From assembly GCF_002854065.1 (NCBI RefSeq), contig NZ_CP024147.1: 64,000 nucleotides of DNA; one strand, written 5' to 3'. The number at the start of each line of letters is the position of its first letter. The stretch's first letter is position 1. Below are positions 4,209 through 55,053 of the stretch, piece after piece. This DNA is from Escherichia coli. GTDB taxonomy: Bacteria > Pseudomonadota > Gammaproteobacteria > Enterobacterales > Enterobacteriaceae. Position numbers and translations under genes: made by a program. The notes under the pieces are model-generated. The model ran no database searches and was not told the origin of the DNA. It saw nothing but the letters and a program-made list of their open reading frames with translations.

Positions 4209-5597
4209 TTATAGGGTTAAGCATTGAATACTGGTGCGCGCGGCGGCCAGCGGATCGACTCTGGCGACGTTTGCCAGCAGTGGTAATAGCCCCCGGGAAT
4301 CGCGGTAATATTCAAATTCGGTCGGTAAGAGAATGCGTTTACCGTCGTCGTTTAACTCGCGGTATTTCAACCAGTGATGCATATCGAACTGACTGGCACG
4401 CGAGAGCCATCCGCCGGATCCGACGACTTTACGCACGGTTGTCAGGTCACGTCCCATCTGTAAATCGACATTGCCGACGCAGGTGCAGACCTCTTTTTTG
4501 GTGCCCGCATGTCTTTCGGTGGCATAACCCACACACAGTCCGGCCAGGACGGTATCGAAATATTTCTCTTCTGCATTTGCGGGTAAGTAGTCGGGATGAG
4601 CGACTAGATGACGGAGGTAATGATAAAAAGCGTCCAGCTGTGCGGGTTGCTGAGCAAAATTCACATTGACTAACTCTTTCGCACTTTCACCAACCACCAC
4701 TGCCGAGACGCGCATTCCCAGATCGCCTTCCACCGTCCGTTTTACGAAGGGTTCCGGTACGCCGTGTAAAACGGTGTCGGGCGAGAGCGTGTTGGCACAG
4801 GCGGAATAAACATCGGTGGTTGCGCCGCCCATGTCGATCAGCATGAACTCTTTCCAGCTGTGATCGACGTTACTGATTGCCTTGACCAGTTCAAAGACCG
4901 TCCATGGTGTCGGCATTGGTTCTTCGCCTGTTTTATCAACAATGACATCCAGCCCTTTCCCTTTAACGATGCGTTTAAGGAATATGTCGCAAATAGCCTG
5001 GCGTGCGGCTAAAGGGTTCGGATGGTCAAGATCGGGCAGAACATTGTCGACGATGGTCAGGTCTTTATGCCCGAGGATCTCCTGCACCTCGTCCTGAATA
5101 TCCCGGTTTCCGGCATAAATAATGGCGCAGTCGAGTTTGGATTCTGCCAGCACACGGGCGTTATTCAGTCCGTAGCTTTCTTCTCCGCCGTCGGTGCCGC
5201 CGGTGAACAAGAGAATATCGGGCTGCGTTTCTTCCAGTGCCTGGATATCACGGCGGTTCAGCTTGTAGGCGTAATATTGCGCAATTTTAGCACCCGCAGA
5301 GTGAGCGGTTACTTTCGCGGTTTCCAGGGTGATAGAAGGCACCAATCCCATTGCGGCAACCGCCAGCCCACCTTTGGCAGAGGAGGAATACTTCAATGCA
5401 ACCTCACCGCTGTTTAACAGGGGGAGGGCATTATCTACGTTTAACACCTGGTTCAGGCTGGAGAAAAACCCCTTCGCCAGATGATGGGTGGTGGTTGGGG
5501 TCAGTACGTGGTTAACCAACGTTAACGCGTCCCCCTCCCGGGTGAAGAGGGCTGCTTTGGTCCACGTCGATCCAATATCGACAGAGACGATTTGCAT
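4209..5597 (-). CDS. glmL: glutamate mutase accessory protein (MutL/GlmL-like, ATPase-fold putative reactivase)
   Basis: 462 aa, [18 protein letters not shown]... (actin/hexokinase-like N-terminal phosphate motif); located between S and E subunit genes as in clostridial mutS-mutL-mutE. Confidence 0.8.
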   Translation of the reverse strand: MQIVSVDIGSTWTKAALFTREGDALTLVNHVLTPTTTHHLAKGFFSSLNQVLNVDNALPLLNSGEVALKYSSSAKGGLAVAAMGLVPSITLETAKVTAHSAGAKIAQYYAYKLNRRDIQALEETQPDILLFTGGTDGGEESYGLNNARVLAESKLDCAIIYAGNRDIQDEVQEILGHKDLTIVDNVLPDLDHPNPLAARQAICDIFLKRIVKGKGLDVIVDKTGEEPMPTPWTVFELVKAISNVDHSWKEFMLIDMGGATTDVYSACANTLSPDTVLHGVPEPFVKRTVEGDLGMRVSAVVVGESAKELVNVNFAQQPAQLDAFYHYLRHLVAHPDYLPANAEEKYFDTVLAGLCVGYATERHAGTKKEVCTCVGNVDLQMGRDLTTVRKVVGSGGWLSRASQFDMHHWLKYRELNDDGKRILLPTEFEYYRDSRGLLPLLANVARVDPLAAARTSIQCLTL

Positions 5598-6046
5598 CAG
5601 ATAGCCTCTTCAAGAATACGAGTATCAACGTCATGACGTTGGTTGATATCGTGGGCCATCAGCTGACAAACATCTTCTAAGTCATGACTTGGGGCAAAGA
5701 CGCGATCAAATCCCATCTCTTTGAATTTGGTTTCCACGTCAGCGAAGTCATGTTTTCCGACCACCAGGTTACCGCCCACATAGAGCAGGATGTCCCCCAG
5801 TCCACGCTCGATGCAGCGTTCGCGCATGCCCAGACAGTCGATATCGCCATGCCCATAGATAGAGGAGACGACAATCGCGTCAGCGCCAGTTTCAATGGCC
5901 GCATCAATATATTCGTCCTGGCTGACCATTACGCCCAGATTAATGACTCTGAAGTCGTGGTTGCTAAAAACGCGGTCCAGAACTTTATTGCCTACTGCAT
6001 GGCAGTCCGCGCCAATAACGCCAATCACAAGTGTTGCTTTCTTCAT
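5597..6046 (-). CDS. glutamate mutase S (sigma, cobalamin-binding) subunit; symbol left blank because glmS/mutS clash with unrelated E. coli genes
   Basis: [23 protein letters not shown]... carries the DxHxxG B12-binding signature; start moved from track ORF 6109 to ATG 6046 with AAGGA RBS 7 nt upstream; stop shares one nt with glmL start. Confidence 0.85.
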
Positions 6047-16461: not shown

Positions 16462-17007
<546 letters not shown>

Positions 17008-17016
17008 GAGAATTGC

Positions 17017-17808
17017 ATGAGCAGTAACTTCAGACATCAACTATTGAGTCTGTCGTTACTGGTTGGTATAGCGGCCCCCTGGGCCGCTTTTGCTCAGGCA
17101 CCAATCAGTAGTGTCGGCTCAGGCTCGGTCGAAGACCGCGTCACTCAACTTGAGCGTATTTCTAATGCTCACAGCCAGCTTTTAACCCAACTCCAGCAAC
17201 AACTCTCTGATAATCAATCCGATATTGATTCCCTGCGTGGTCAGATTCAGGAAAATCAGTATCAACTGAATCAGGTCGTGGAGCGGCAAAAGCAGATCCT
17301 GTTGCAGATCGACAGCCTCAGCAGCGGTGGTGCAGCGGCGCAATCAACCAGCGGTGATCAAAGCGGTGCGGCGGCATCAACGACGCCGACAGCTGATGCT
17401 GGTACTGCGAATGCTGGCGCGCCGGTGAAAAGCGGTGATGCAAACACGGATTACAATGCAGCTATTGCGCTGGTGCAGGATAAATCCCGCCAGGATGACG
17501 CAATGGTGGCATTTCAGAATTTCATCAAAAATTACCCTGATTCAACTTACCTGCCAAACGCCAATTATTGGCTGGGTCAGTTAAACTACAACAAGGGTAA
17601 AAAAGATGATGCGGCGTACTATTTTGCTTCGGTAGTGAAAAACTATCCGAAGTCACCAAAGGCTGCAGATGCGATGTTTAAAGTCGGTGTCATCATGCAG
17701 GACAAAGGTGACACCGCAAAAGCGAAAGCCGTATACCAGCAGGTTATCAGTAAATACCCTGGTACTGATGGCGCTAAACAGGCACAAAAACGTCTGAACG
17801 CGATGTAA
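17017..17808 (+). CDS. cpoB: cell division coordinator CpoB (YbgF)
   Basis: 263 aa, signal peptide, coiled-coil, TPR-like C-terminus. Confidence 0.95.
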   Translation: MSSNFRHQLLSLSLLVGIAAPWAAFAQAPISSVGSGSVEDRVTQLERISNAHSQLLTQLQQQLSDNQSDIDSLRGQIQENQYQLNQVVERQKQILLQIDSLSSGGAAAQSTSGDQSGAAASTTPTADAGTANAGAPVKSGDANTDYNAAIALVQDKSRQDDAMVAFQNFIKNYPDSTYLPNANYWLGQLNYNKGKKDDAAYYFASVVKNYPKSPKAADAMFKVGVIMQDKGDTAKAKAVYQQVISKYPGTDGAKQAQKRLNAM

Positions 17809-17972: not shown

Positions 17973-18048
17973 GGGTCGTTAGCTCAGTTGGTAGAGCAGT
18001 TGACTTTTAATCAATTGGTCGCAGGTTCGAATCCTGCACGACCCACCA
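17973..18048 (+). tRNA. lysT: tRNA-Lys (anticodon UUU)
   Basis: 76-nt gggtcgttagctcagttggtagagcagttgacttttaatcaattggtcgcaggttcgaatcctgcacgacccacca with encoded CCA. Confidence 0.97.
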
Positions 18049-18083
18049 CTAACCTAGTTAGTTGTAGTATCCAGCGTAGTATC

Positions 18084-18159
18084 GGGTGATTAGCTCAGCT
18101 GGGAGAGCACCTCCCTTACAAGGAGGGGGTCGGCGGTTCGATCCCGTCATCACCCACCA
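18084..18159 (+). tRNA. valT: tRNA-Val (anticodon UAC)
   Basis: 76-nt gggtgattagctcagctgggagagcacctcccttacaaggagggggtcggcggttcgatcccgtcatcacccacca. Confidence 0.97.
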
Positions 18160-18161
18160 CC

Positions 18162-18237
18162 GGGTCGTTAGCTCAGTTGGTAGAGCAGTTGACTTTTAAT
18201 CAATTGGTCGCAGGTTCGAATCCTGCACGACCCACCA
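18162..18237 (+). tRNA. lysW: tRNA-Lys (UUU)
   Basis: Identical copy of the lysT sequence. Confidence 0.97.
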
Positions 18238-18288
18238 CTAATTACGGTGGGTTCGGTGGAAGTAGTTTGTAGTATCCAGCGCAGTATC

Positions 18289-18364
18289 GGGTGATTAGCT
18301 CAGCTGGGAGAGCACCTCCCTTACAAGGAGGGGGTCGGCGGTTCGAACCCGTCATCACCCACCA
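18289..18364 (+). tRNA. valZ: tRNA-Val (UAC), T-loop variant
   Basis: Same as valT except gttcgaaccc instead of gttcgatccc in the T-loop. Confidence 0.95.
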
Positions 18365-18367
18365 CTC

Positions 18368-18443
18368 GGGTCGTTAGCTCAGTTGGTAGAGCAGTTGACT
18401 TTTAATCAATTGGTCGCAGGTTCGAATCCTGCACGACCCACCA
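18368..18443 (+). tRNA. lysY: tRNA-Lys (UUU)
   Basis: Identical copy. Confidence 0.97.
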
Positions 18444-18495
18444 GTTTTAACATCAAACTCAGATGTTAAGCGTGAAGGATAACGTTGCGCCAGCA

Positions 18496-18541
18496 ACGGC
18501 CCGTAGGGCGAGCGAAGCGAGTCATCCTGCACGACCCACCA
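18496..18541 (+). repeat. tRNA-Lys 3'-end remnant repeat, copy 1
   Basis: acggcccgtagggcgagcgaagcgagtc followed by atcctgcacgacccacca, the exact last 18 nt of tRNA-Lys; no 5' half. Confidence 0.7.
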
Positions 18542-18589
18542 ATCTTAAAGATTGGCCCCGAGTAAAAATCTTTCAGGTAACACCCGTAT

Positions 18590-18665
18590 GGGTCGTTAGC
18601 TCAGTTGGTAGAGCAGTTGACTTTTAATCAATTGGTCGCAGGTTCGAATCCTGCACGACCCACCA
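18590..18665 (+). tRNA. lysZ: tRNA-Lys (UUU)
   Basis: Identical copy. Confidence 0.97.
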
Positions 18666-18698
18666 TCCTGAATGATTAAAGCAGCATAATCCCGCAAG

Positions 18699-18774
18699 GG
18701 GTCGTTAGCTCAGTTGGTAGAGCAGTTGACTTTTAATCAATTGGTCGCAGGTTCGAATCCTGCACGACCCACCA
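18699..18774 (+). tRNA. lysQ: tRNA-Lys (UUU)
   Basis: Identical copy; last gene of the array. Confidence 0.97.
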
Positions 18775-18778
18775 ATGT

Positions 18779-18805
18779 AAAAAAGCGCCCTAAAGGCGCT
18801 TTTTT
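18779..18805 (+). terminator. rho-independent terminator of the tRNA operon
   Basis: aaaagcgcc-ctaa-aggcgc hairpin followed by tttttt. Confidence 0.75.
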
Positions 18806-18884
18806 GCTATCTGCGATACTCAAAGATTCGAACCTGCAGCAGGTTTGAGTTGAGCGTAGCGAAACAACGGAGCCGCTCGCGGCG

Positions 18885-18930
18885 ACGGCCCGAAGGGCGA
18901 GCGAAGCGAGTCATCCTGCACGACCCACCA
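18885..18930 (+). repeat. tRNA-Lys 3'-end remnant repeat, copy 2
   Basis: acggcccgaagggcgagcgaagcgagtc plus atcctgcacgacccacca; differs from copy 1 by one nt. Confidence 0.7.
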
Positions 18931-30969: not shown

Positions 30970-31758
30970 TTAGCACAGCGTGGCGATAATCACGCTGTCG
31001 GCATTAAAGTAGGCCGTGACATTCTGTCCTTGCTGAAGAGAAGTCGCTTCATTTACCGGCACTGTGGCGCACAGTGTTTGCCCGTCCGGTAGCGCCATTA
31101 ATACTTCGCACTGCTCTGCGCCGCGCTCAATATGACTAATAATACCCGGTAATTGGTTGTCAGCGTTTTGCGCGACCGCTTCGTCCTGAGTAATGCCTAC
31201 CCACGGCGCTTTTAGCAATATCAACACTTCTTTGCCTTCATCCAGCCCCAGACGCGCGCCGCTTTGTGCGGTAATTGCGACTTTCAGGCGTGTTTTTCCA
31301 TCAGCCAGTAAGACATCAACATGCTGTTGAACGTCATCATGATCGCGGGCGGTGATGGTACCGAACCACTGGTTACGGGCGCTGGTTTGCAGTGAAAAAC
31401 GTGAGATCGCGGCCAGCAGGCTGTTCAGCGGCAGGGCGTCATCGTCACTTAACACATCAAAGGCTTTTTGCTGGATTTGCGCCAGTAAGTCATAGAGCTG
31501 AATCAGTCGCTGACCATAGCGGGTCAGTACTGCGCCGCCGCCACCTTTACCGCCTGTTGCACGCTCGACCAGAATATGCTCACTTAACTGATTCATCTCG
31601 TTAATGGCATCCCAGGCGCTTTTATAGCTGATACCGGCATCTTTCGCTCCCTGGCTAATGGAACCGGAAAGCGCAATGTGTTTTAGTAGCGAAATGCGGC
31701 GCGGGTCGGCGAATAATTTTTGTTGGAGCTTAAGGGTGAGAAGGATTTCGGCCTGCAT
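30970..31758 (-). CDS. modE: molybdate-responsive transcriptional regulator ModE
   Basis: 262 aa, MQAEILLTLKLQQKLFADPRRISLLKHIALSGSISQGAKDAGISYKSAW... Confidence 0.97.
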   Translation of the reverse strand: MQAEILLTLKLQQKLFADPRRISLLKHIALSGSISQGAKDAGISYKSAWDAINEMNQLSEHILVERATGGKGGGGAVLTRYGQRLIQLYDLLAQIQQKAFDVLSDDDALPLNSLLAAISRFSLQTSARNQWFGTITARDHDDVQQHVDVLLADGKTRLKVAITAQSGARLGLDEGKEVLILLKAPWVGITQDEAVAQNADNQLPGIISHIERGAEQCEVLMALPDGQTLCATVPVNEATSLQQGQNVTAYFNADSVIIATLC

Positions 31759-32159: not shown

Positions 32160-32183
32160 CGTTATATTGTCGCCTACATAACG
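32160..32183 (+). promoter_or_regulatory. ModE operator at the modA promoter
   Basis: Palindrome cgttatat-tgtcgcc-tacataacg directly upstream of modA. Confidence 0.75.
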
Positions 32184-32202: not shown

Positions 32203-32976
32203 ATGGCTCGTAAATGGTTGAACTTGTTTGCCGGGGCGGCACTCTCTTTCGCTGTTGCTGGCAATGCACTGGCAGATGAAGGGAAAATCACGGTGTTCGC
32301 CGCCGCATCACTGACTAACGCAATGCAGGACATTGCTACGCAGTATAAAAAAGAGAAAGGCGTGGATGTGGTTTCTTCTTTCGCTTCGTCATCTACTCTC
32401 GCCCGTCAGATTGAAGCGGGTGCGCCTGCGGATCTGTTTATTTCTGCCGATCAGAAATGGATGGATTATGCGGTTGATAAAAAAGCGATCGATACAGCTA
32501 CGCGTCAGACACTGCTCGGCAATAGCCTGGTCGTTGTAGCACCGAAAGCCAGCGAGCAGAAAGATTTCATCATCGACAGCAAAACTAACTGGACTTCGCT
32601 GCTGAATGGCGGTCGCCTCGCGGTTGGCGATCCGGAACATGTCCCTGCTGGCATTTATGCAAAAGAAGCACTGCAAAAACTGGGCGCATGGGATACGCTC
32701 TCCCCGAAACTGGCTCCGGCGGAAGATGTTCGTGGCGCGCTGGCGTTGGTCGAACGCAATGAAGCGCCGTTGGGCATTGTTTACGGTTCTGACGCAGTTG
32801 CCAGCAAAGGGGTAAAAGTGGTTGCCACCTTCCCGGAAGATTCACATAAAAAAGTGGAATATCCGGTTGCTGTTGTGGAAGGGCATAACAATGCGACAGT
32901 GAAAGCATTTTATGATTATCTGAAGGGACCGCAGGCAGCGGAAATCTTTAAACGTTACGGATTTACAACCAAGTAA
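32203..32976 (+). CDS. modA: molybdate ABC transporter periplasmic binding protein
   Basis: 257 aa with signal peptide. Confidence 0.97.
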   Translation: MARKWLNLFAGAALSFAVAGNALADEGKITVFAAASLTNAMQDIATQYKKEKGVDVVSSFASSSTLARQIEAGAPADLFISADQKWMDYAVDKKAIDTATRQTLLGNSLVVVAPKASEQKDFIIDSKTNWTSLLNGGRLAVGDPEHVPAGIYAKEALQKLGAWDTLSPKLAPAEDVRGALALVERNEAPLGIVYGSDAVASKGVKVVATFPEDSHKKVEYPVAVVEGHNNATVKAFYDYLKGPQAAEIFKRYGFTTK

Positions 32977-52758: not shown

Positions 52759-53727
<969 letters not shown>

Positions 53728-53864
53728 TTAACCTGCCAATATTGAGGATACAAACTATTTTCTTCTACCTCTAAAGGACGATGTGCGCTATGCCTCCCTG
53801 ATGATGTATATCAAAGTAAAACCGCCATTTTCCCTTATTCTGTAGCGAAATAGCACGATCATGA

Positions 53865-53888
53865 CGCTATATACATGATTACATAGCG
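53865..53888 (+). promoter_or_regulatory. ModE-type operator in moaA promoter region
   Basis: cgctatat-acatgat-tacatagcg has the same half-sites as the modA operator at 32160..32183. Confidence 0.55.
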
Positions 53889-53919
53889 AAAGTGTGGATG
53901 GTAAAAATCTCGTTTACAC

Positions 53920-54060
53920 GCTAGTATCGGCTTAACCACTAAACACTCTAGCCTCTGCACCTGGGTCAACTGATACGGTGCTTTGGCCGTGACAATGCTC
54001 GTAAAGATTGCCACCAGGGCGAAGGAAGAAATGACTTCGCCTCCCGTATCTGGAAAGGTG
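53920..54060 (+). promoter_or_regulatory. moaA 5' leader, presumed molybdenum-cofactor (Moco) riboswitch
   Basis: About 140-nt structured leader before moaA; the E. coli moaA leader is known to carry the Moco RNA motif; boundaries approximate. Confidence 0.5.
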
Positions 54061-54063
54061 TAC

Positions 54064-55053
54064 ATGGCTTCACAACTGACTGATGCATTTGCGCGTAAGT
54101 TTTACTACTTGCGCCTGTCGATTACCGATGTGTGTAACTTTCGTTGCACCTACTGCCTGCCGGATGGCTACAAACCGAGCGGCGTCACCAATAAAGGCTT
54201 TCTGACCGTCGATGAAATTCGCCGGGTTACGCGCGCCTTCGCCAGTCTGGGCACCGAAAAAGTCCGTCTGACAGGTGGTGAGCCGTCTTTACGCCGCGAC
54301 TTTACCGATATCATCGCCGCTGTGCGAGAAAATGACGCTATCCGCCAGATTGCGGTCACCACCAATGGTTACCGTCTGGAACGCGATGTGGCGAACTGGC
54401 GCGATGCTGGACTTACTGGCATCAACGTCAGCGTTGATAGTCTGGACGCCCGCCAGTTTCACGCTATTACCGGGCAGGATAAATTCAACCAGGTGATGGC
54501 AGGGATTGATGCTGCATTTGAGGCTGGTTTTGAGAAGGTCAAAGTCAATACCGTGCTGATGCGTGATGTGAATCATCACCAGCTCGACACCTTTCTGAAC
54601 TGGATCCAGCATCGCCCTATCCAGCTGCGTTTCATCGAACTGATGGAAACGGGCGAGGGCAGCGAGCTCTTCCGTAAGCATCACATCTCTGGTCAGGTTC
54701 TGCGTGACGAGCTACTGCGTCGCGGCTGGATCCACCAATTACGTCAACGCAGCGACGGTCCCGCGCAAGTCTTTTGTCATCCGGATTACGCCGGAGAGAT
54801 TGGCCTTATCATGCCGTATGAAAAAGACTTCTGCGCCACTTGCAACCGTCTGCGCGTTTCCTCCATTGGTAAACTCCATCTCTGCCTGTTTGGTGAAGGC
54901 GGCGTTAACCTGCGCGATCTGCTGGAAGACGATACCCAGCAACAGGCGCTGGAAGCGCGTATTTCAGCGGCGCTGCGGGAGAAGAAACAGACCCATTTCC
55001 TGCATCAAAACAACACCGGTATTACGCAAAACTTATCGTACATTGGCGGCTAA
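54064..55053 (+). CDS. moaA: GTP 3',8-cyclase (radical SAM)
   Basis: 329 aa from [31 protein letters not shown]...; track ORF trimmed by 27 codons. Confidence 0.97.

Follow-up and report, generated by a model that had tools for sequence, protein, structure and literature searches.

Which signals precede the moaA gene of Escherichia coli, and at which codon does the gene itself begin? The original prediction for positions 53728..54063 was a composite control region, in which a ModE-type palindrome is followed by a long structured leader that an open reading frame appears to translate in part. We analysed these positions within a 64 000 nt stretch of E. coli DNA, referred to here as the window. 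The answer is a familiar one: 53728..54063 is almost certainly the well-known region through which several inputs control the E. coli moaABCDE operon. The region is real and has been described before in E. coli K-12, which has an essentially identical sequence, and no sequence evidence contradicting this reading was found. Start sites, protein binding and regulatory outcomes are taken from the literature; motif and covariance-model matches, conservation, covariation and sequence identity were computed here. The features are listed in Table 1.

The window is part of the E. coli chromosome (uvrB, yvcK/ybhK, moaABCDE). A genome search matched 53600..54200 in 5424 of 5426 complete E. coli genomes; among the matches listed, three records were 100% identical. 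Two genomes had no match, and two matches were on records typed as plasmids. In one identical genome the RefSeq order is uvrB, yvcK (minus strand), molybdenum cofactor riboswitch, moaA, moaB, moaC, moaD, moaE and ybhL. The yvcK start at ATG 53667 is backed by RefSeq and by the YvcK family profile, whereas the longest open reading frame begins at TTG 53727 and adds 20 surplus codons (53668..53727, minus strand). The true yvcK–moaA intergenic region is therefore 53668..54063, and the interval had its left edge at 53728 rather than 53668 because the longest-ORF start over-extends yvcK.

Locus and gene order (yvcK/ybhK, moaABCDE) are identical to those of the K-12 moaABCDE promoter and leader, which differ from the window by four SNPs only. 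Pairwise comparison with K-12 MG1655 located these within the 423 nt of 53668..54090: TG for CA at 53784-5, G for A at 53912 and T for A at 53932. The last one sits 2 nt upstream of the proximal start S1. None of the four falls in the FNR site, the ModE site, a −10 hexamer or a paired base of the aptamer, and we do not expect them to alter function. For conservation, the yvcK–moaA spacer was aligned from nine sequences (E. coli, Escherichia albertii, four Citrobacter, two Kluyvera and Pseudocitrobacter). In the clinical E. coli strain 774 (NZ_CP183138.1) this spacer carries an insertion of an IS4-like ISVsa5 transposase (L123, 1280..2488), at the equivalent of about 53785 in the window and about 16 nt upstream of the FNR site. 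The riboswitch of that strain is intact, as are its FNR and ModE sites.

Table 1. Features of the moaA control region and related features of the window. Mean identities refer to the alignment of nine enteric sequences.
Feature	Position	Strand	Mean identity	Remarks
modE	30970..31758	-		trans-acting regulator of both operators; NCBIfam NF007957, 509.8 bits (cutoff 369)
modA operator CGTTATATTGTCGCCTACATAACG	32160..32183	.		reference ModE site; 20 nt upstream of modA ATG 32203
modA	32203..32976			NCBIfam NF007958, 508.6 bits
yvcK	52759..53667	-		RefSeq annotation transferred; NCBIfam confirms YvcK
Flanking spacer DNA			57-68%	
FNR-type site aTGAT-GTAT-ATCAA	53801..53814	+		9/10 to TTGAT-N4-ATCAA; serves distal promoter
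Distal −10 region	53835..53852		90%	contains TATTCTGTAG
Distal S2 promoter	53836..53847	+		−10 TATTCT 53836..53841; start near 53847 (plus or minus 2)
ModE-type operator, palindrome CGCTATATA-CATGAT-TACATAGCG	53865..53888	.		centred about −57.5 from S1
ModE left arm			93%	
ModE right arm			85%	
ModE 6-nt spacer			65%	
Proximal promoter core	53913..53933		88%	contains TAGTAT 53923..53928
Proximal S1 promoter	53923..53934	+		−10 TAGTAT 53923..53928; start 53934 (plus or minus 1)
Moco riboswitch	53932..54076	+		Rfam RF01055; aptamer core 53942..54062
Aptamer			88%	
P1 5' strand (AACAC-u-C)	53942..53948	+		pairs with 54057..54062; cmscan structure line
P2	53951..53987	+		3x3 internal loop, tetraloop-receptor-like bulge CCUGGG / AUACGG, short distal stem-loop
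P3 stem-loop	53989..54014	+		11-nt insertion relative to RF01055 model
P3 loop			58%	
P4	54017..54042	+		GAAA tetraloop 54028..54031
P5 mini-hairpin (CC-CGUAUCU-GG)	54043..54053	+		in invariant core
Shine-Dalgarno region AGGUGUA	54056..54062	+		P1 3' strand, expression platform
Spurious 27-codon TTG extension of moaA ORF	53983..54063	+		spans aptamer P2 3' strand to P1 3' strand
moaA (329 aa)	54064..55053	+		RefSeq ATG; NCBIfam TIGR02666, 369.7 bits

A cmscan search matched the leader to the Moco RNA model RF01055 over its full length (model positions 1-135 of 135), scoring 103.4 bits (gathering score 36; E-value 1.2e-24). In the identical genome, the PGAP annotation has a ‘molybdenum cofactor riboswitch’ at precisely this position. 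The leader thus has the significant covariance-model hit whose lack had been named as the argument against a Moco motif. The prediction had put the leader at about 140 nt; the motif was borne out, while the length should read about 130 nt from the proximal start. The assignment of the leader as a Moco riboswitch is supported.

The element is placed directly upstream of the Moco biosynthesis gene moaA, and the RF01055 match runs 13 nt into that gene. Within P1, U53947 is bulged and A53942–A54062 is a non-standard pair; an outer extension pairs 53934, 53935 and 53937 with 54070, 54069 and 54067, in codons 2 and 3. Reading the sequence, the Shine–Dalgarno motif AGGUG is at 54056..54060 and the AUG at 54064 follows after 4 nt. 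The ribosome binding site has been placed inside P1 of the E. coli moaA riboswitch (Regulski et al., 2008; PMC2408646). A scan of the leader for intrinsic terminators found none, which fits translational control.

With the RF01055 consensus the element shares P1 to P5, the GAAA loop of P4, the Shine–Dalgarno sequence in P1 and the invariant core CGCCUCCC...GGAAAGG. It differs in the bulged U and in an A-U pair replacing U-A, both in the enteric P1, and in its receptor bulge, the 3x3 internal loop of P2 and the 11-nt insertion in P3. The putative receptor position reads CCUGGG / AUACGG where CCUAAG / UAUGG is canonical; Kluyvera and Pseudocitrobacter carry CCUAAG at this position. P3, the hallmark of the Moco rather than the putative tungsten-cofactor subclass, is present.

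Covariation was used to assess the fold. Homologues were collected by a pattern scan with CGCCTCCCGTNNNTGGAAAGGNG in one genome per species, which gave at least 120 loci from many phyla. In 14 gammaproteobacterial sequences, with the Rfam pairs mapped from the row of the window, 82.4% of the cells were paired, compared with 32-47% in a control in which the pairing partners were slid by 1-3 columns. Changes on both sides were found in 20 of 38 pairs (4-10 in the slid controls), and none of 500 shuffles was as high. A covariance model built from these 14 sequences was then used to align 112 homologues from many phyla. Because it is fitted to the model, this alignment favours pairing; 89.7% of its cells were paired against 32-51% when slid, with 841 doubly changed cells against 132-220 and a covariation score of 0.461 against at most 0.089. 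Covariation of P4 was also visible in a plain MAFFT alignment, as it was in the 14-sequence and 112-homologue alignments, and both this result and the slid controls point in the same direction as the model-fitted alignment.

The individual helices contribute to different degrees. Among the 112 homologues, both-side changes occurred in all five pairs of P1, in 10 of 11 proximal pairs of P2 and in its three distal pairs. The outer pairs of P3 covary within enterics (for example GUGAC/GCCAC versus GCGGC/GUCGC), and P3 differs in length between genera by −7 to +3 nt, the changes in its loop not being multiples of 3. Only about one-fourth of the 112 homologues possess P3, in line with the published division into forms with P3 (Moco) and without it (proposed tungsten cofactor) (PMC2408646). 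P5 is uninformative on pairing, as it is invariant and the homologues were partly selected by its sequence. Run on a plain MAFFT alignment of 118 diverse homologues, RNAalifold returned P4, a spurious helix in the invariant core and nothing else. This poor result is due to misalignment of P2 and P3, and the covariance-model alignment was used instead.

Structure prediction for the single sequence, which had been proposed as a second check, gave a fold not significantly better than shuffles and is not decisive alone. The minimum free energy fold of 53932..54076 (−42 kcal/mol, z −1.57; 14 of 200 shuffles fold equally well) recovers P3 and P4 and does not reproduce P1 and P2. It pairs the Shine–Dalgarno region with UGCACCU at 53956..53962, on the 5' strand of P2, instead of with P1. 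As a conserved feature this alternative helix was rejected: it is possible in Enterobacteriaceae and broken in Vibrio and Shewanella, with no compensatory change. For the predicted riboswitch fold, the comparative evidence is decisive and thermodynamic folding is not.

A conserved structure might also serve as a platform for proteins such as CsrA, Rho or an unknown Moco-binding factor and not itself sense the cofactor. Moco is unstable, and for this reason a direct contact between it and the RNA has yet to be demonstrated (PMC2408646; PMC10845959); the term ‘riboswitch’ therefore rests on genetics, namely on evidence for ligand-dependent repression obtained with the K-12 sequence (PMC2408646). 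CsrA activates moaA translation and has two binding sites in the aptamer (PMC7652899). Rho-dependent 3' ends have been found at moaA, where reporter expression is also sensitive to Rho, with premature termination in the untranslated leader or early in the open reading frame (PMC7815308). Against these points, disruption and restoration of P3 and mutants of the Moco pathway behave as for a direct sensor, and a protein factor was not found (PMC2408646). Further, the aptamer-like core has been kept in many phyla, with heavy covariation. To our knowledge, the phyla with a Moco aptamer include lineages in which CsrA is not expected. CsrA and Rho add to ligand sensing and do not replace it. We consider it very unlikely that the leader is only a protein platform, and retain the Moco riboswitch. 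By in vitro DMS ensemble mapping, the moaA riboswitch is among the regions that adopt at least two conformations (PMC13271884).

Two Moco-type aptamers occur on one strand in several metagenome-assembled genomes, separated by about 20 to about 290 nt. An example is the tandem at 5563..5685 and 5708..5826 of locus L020; further cases are L085, L088, L111 and L064. Regulski et al. (2008; PMC2408646) had already described tandem Moco aptamers. Other RNA elements were found elsewhere in the window, on the plus strand. A full-length match to the CpoB/ybgF intergenic RNA thermometer (Rfam RF02782; 142.2 bits, E 2e-28) is located at 16908..17046. A cluster of seven tRNAs at 17973..18930 consists of five identical ones (79.2 bits) and two others, and is interleaved with two RtT elements (RF00391; 18375..18541 and 18805..18930). 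Three of the five identical tRNAs were aligned; their anticodon loop CUUUUAA contains the anticodon UUU, for Lys.

The second component is the palindrome upstream of S1, which the prediction had described as closely resembling the ModE operator of modA. The ModE consensus is reportedly TATAT-N7-TAYAT with flanking CG, and is said to go back to Grunden et al. in 1999 and Anderson et al. in 2000. The consensus was used here in this form, together with a comparison with the modA operator of the window. Positions 53865..53888 read CGCTATATACATGATTACATAGCG, identical to K-12. A repeat search found this as the sole inverted repeat of the intergenic region, with 9-nt arms that are 89% complementary and 6 nt apart. 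The pattern TATAT-N7-TAYAT occurs twice in the 64 kb (0.12 expected), and both sites adjoin molybdenum-related operons. Exact matches to the longer pattern CGNTATAT-N7-TACATANCG occur within the 64 kb only at the moaA site and at the modA operator. With up to two mismatches allowed, 0.08 occurrences are expected, and the observed count was reached in none of 100 shuffles.

The two sites have 16 of 24 bases in common, including every arm position of CGNTATAT-N7-TACATANCG; all common bases are in the arms except one in the spacer. The moaA and modABC operators thus have this architecture and their regulator in common, and their spacers are unrelated. The window also contains modE and the modA operator, some 22 kb upstream of the moaA site. 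Across Escherichia, Citrobacter, Kluyvera and Pseudocitrobacter the arms are kept while the spacer drifts. Fixed half-sites with a free spacer are the mark of a dimeric DNA-binding protein, and the variation in the arms is non-compensatory, which argues against a role as RNA hairpin. With the shared pattern, the conserved arms and the presence of modE, the resemblance to the modA operator is upheld, and the designation of 53865..53888 as a putative ModE-type operator is supported.

The palindrome is short and AT-rich, and might be a chance repeat or the site of another regulator. It also lies inside the S2 transcript (+19 to +42), where a hairpin is predicted, and could act as RNA. These readings are extremely improbable in view of the restriction of the exact pattern to the moaA and modA operators and of the way in which arms and spacer vary. 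Further, the fold of the long S2 leader is no better than shuffles (z −1.43); its S2-specific 87 nt are predicted to fold alone and to leave the aptamer untouched. ModE-dependent activation has been published for the identical sequence, molybdate–ModE activating the S1 promoter according to Anderson (2000) as quoted in PMC2408646. We therefore keep ModE as the probable ligand of the palindrome. The two operators differ in position: that of modA covers the promoter and start region, 20 nt ahead of the ATG, and represses, whereas that of moaA lies upstream of the −35 region of S1 and activates. The sign of the effect is taken from the literature in both cases, and the positional logic is our own interpretation. 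Anderson et al. are said to have reported, in 2000, a ModE footprint on K-12 moaA DNA.

The S1 promoter was placed by means of published reporter primers spanning nt 1-145 from S1 (Regulski et al., 2008; PMC2408646). Mapped onto the window these are 53934..54078, which gives S1 = 53934. A scan of 53650..54120 for consensus sigma-70 promoters found none, and the promoters were therefore placed from literature and conservation. S1 is without a good −35 hexamer, and the lack of a sigma-70 consensus match fits a dependence of S1 on an activator. The block CGCTAGTATCGGC of the S1 promoter is conserved in the enteric alignment. Between S1 and P1, at the equivalent of 53940/53941, lineage-specific insertions were observed in Citrobacter (about 24 nt in L013, L034 and L048), Kluyvera (36 nt in L045 and L114) and Pseudocitrobacter (24 nt in L072); a fourth Citrobacter (L118) has only about two extra bases. 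Each of the larger insertions is an inverted repeat, for example ACTCG...CGAGT or TTCAG...CTGAA. From their sequence, these insertions may be 5'-proximal mRNA hairpins.

Of the control region as first described, the ModE site and the leader stood; a conserved FNR-type site and a distal promoter had been missed. The site matches the FNR pattern with one mismatch; the window holds five matches against 2.8 expected, which is not significant by itself, and the case for this site thus rests on conservation and literature. Its mean identity across the nine enteric sequences is 95%, compared with 57-68% in the flanking spacer. Regulski et al. (2008; PMC2408646) describe an FNR site upstream of S2, the FNR-dependent start, which lies at −87 relative to S1 (Fig. 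2A legend of the same paper). The coordinate of S2 was obtained by counting this distance from S1 = 53934. The block TATTCTGTAG (53836..53845) is invariant in all enteric sequences aligned. TATTCT ends 6 nt upstream of S2, just as TAGTAT ends 6 nt upstream of S1. The centre of the FNR site is at −39.5 from this S2 compared with the textbook −41.5 of FNR-activated class II promoters; S2 may therefore be about 2 nt further downstream, or the spacing may be atypical.

A mechanical open reading frame, 53983..55053, begins at a TTG within the leader. That this TTG is a genuine start, which would give MoaA a 27-residue extension or would make the leader a coding upstream frame, can practically be dismissed: the frame is unbroken into moaA and has 30 open codons in Escherichia, one Citrobacter and Pseudocitrobacter, but a stop closes it after 19-24 codons in Kluyvera and in three Citrobacter, the start at −81 is missing in these and in Klebsiella, P3 varies in length between genera by non-multiples of 3, substitutions track base pairing and not codons, and a Shine–Dalgarno sequence is found 4 nt before the ATG and not before the TTG. 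RefSeq puts the start of moaA at 54064, and the MoaA equivalog profile TIGR02666 begins at residue 5 of the protein starting there (residues 5-329 aligned to profile positions 1-336). The extension from TTG 53983 is spurious, as the prediction had suspected and as the overlap with the aptamer and the poor conservation of the start also indicate, and moaA starts at ATG 54064.

The arrangement suggests how the operon would be controlled. Under anaerobiosis, FNR bound to its site would switch on the distal promoter S2. Molybdate-loaded ModE, bound just upstream of the −35 region, would switch on the proximal promoter S1; at modABC it represses, probably because the operator there adjoins the modA start. 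The transcripts from S2 and from S1 would both carry the roughly 130-nt Moco riboswitch. If the cofactor or a close intermediate is abundant, P1 to P5 of the aptamer would be stabilised and, since the Shine–Dalgarno sequence is part of the P1 3' strand close to the AUG, ribosome loading on moaA would be blocked. The published data agree that S2 is FNR dependent, that S1 is activated by molybdate–ModE, and that in cells able to make Moco a 131-nt leader brings about repression (PMC2408646; PMC10845959). A predicted site for CueR has also been described downstream of the riboswitch (PMC2408646).

As the operator lies within the S2 transcription unit, molybdate–ModE bound there could impede S2 while activating S1, and the mRNA isoforms could then respond differently. 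We regard this as an unlikely refinement, of which the predicted fold of the long S2 leader shows no sign. If true, isoforms with leaders of about 217 nt and about 130 nt may differ in their response to Moco, CsrA or Rho.

The ModE operator, the riboswitch leader and the over-extended open reading frame were recognised from the raw sequence, and the locus serves as a positive control in this respect. It adds no new biology of the moaA control region; the additions are the FNR site, the distal promoter and corrections of coordinates. The moaA region is a textbook case of layered control, in which oxygen acts through FNR, the metal through ModE, the end product through the riboswitch and the global carbon state through CsrA, with Rho as a further input.
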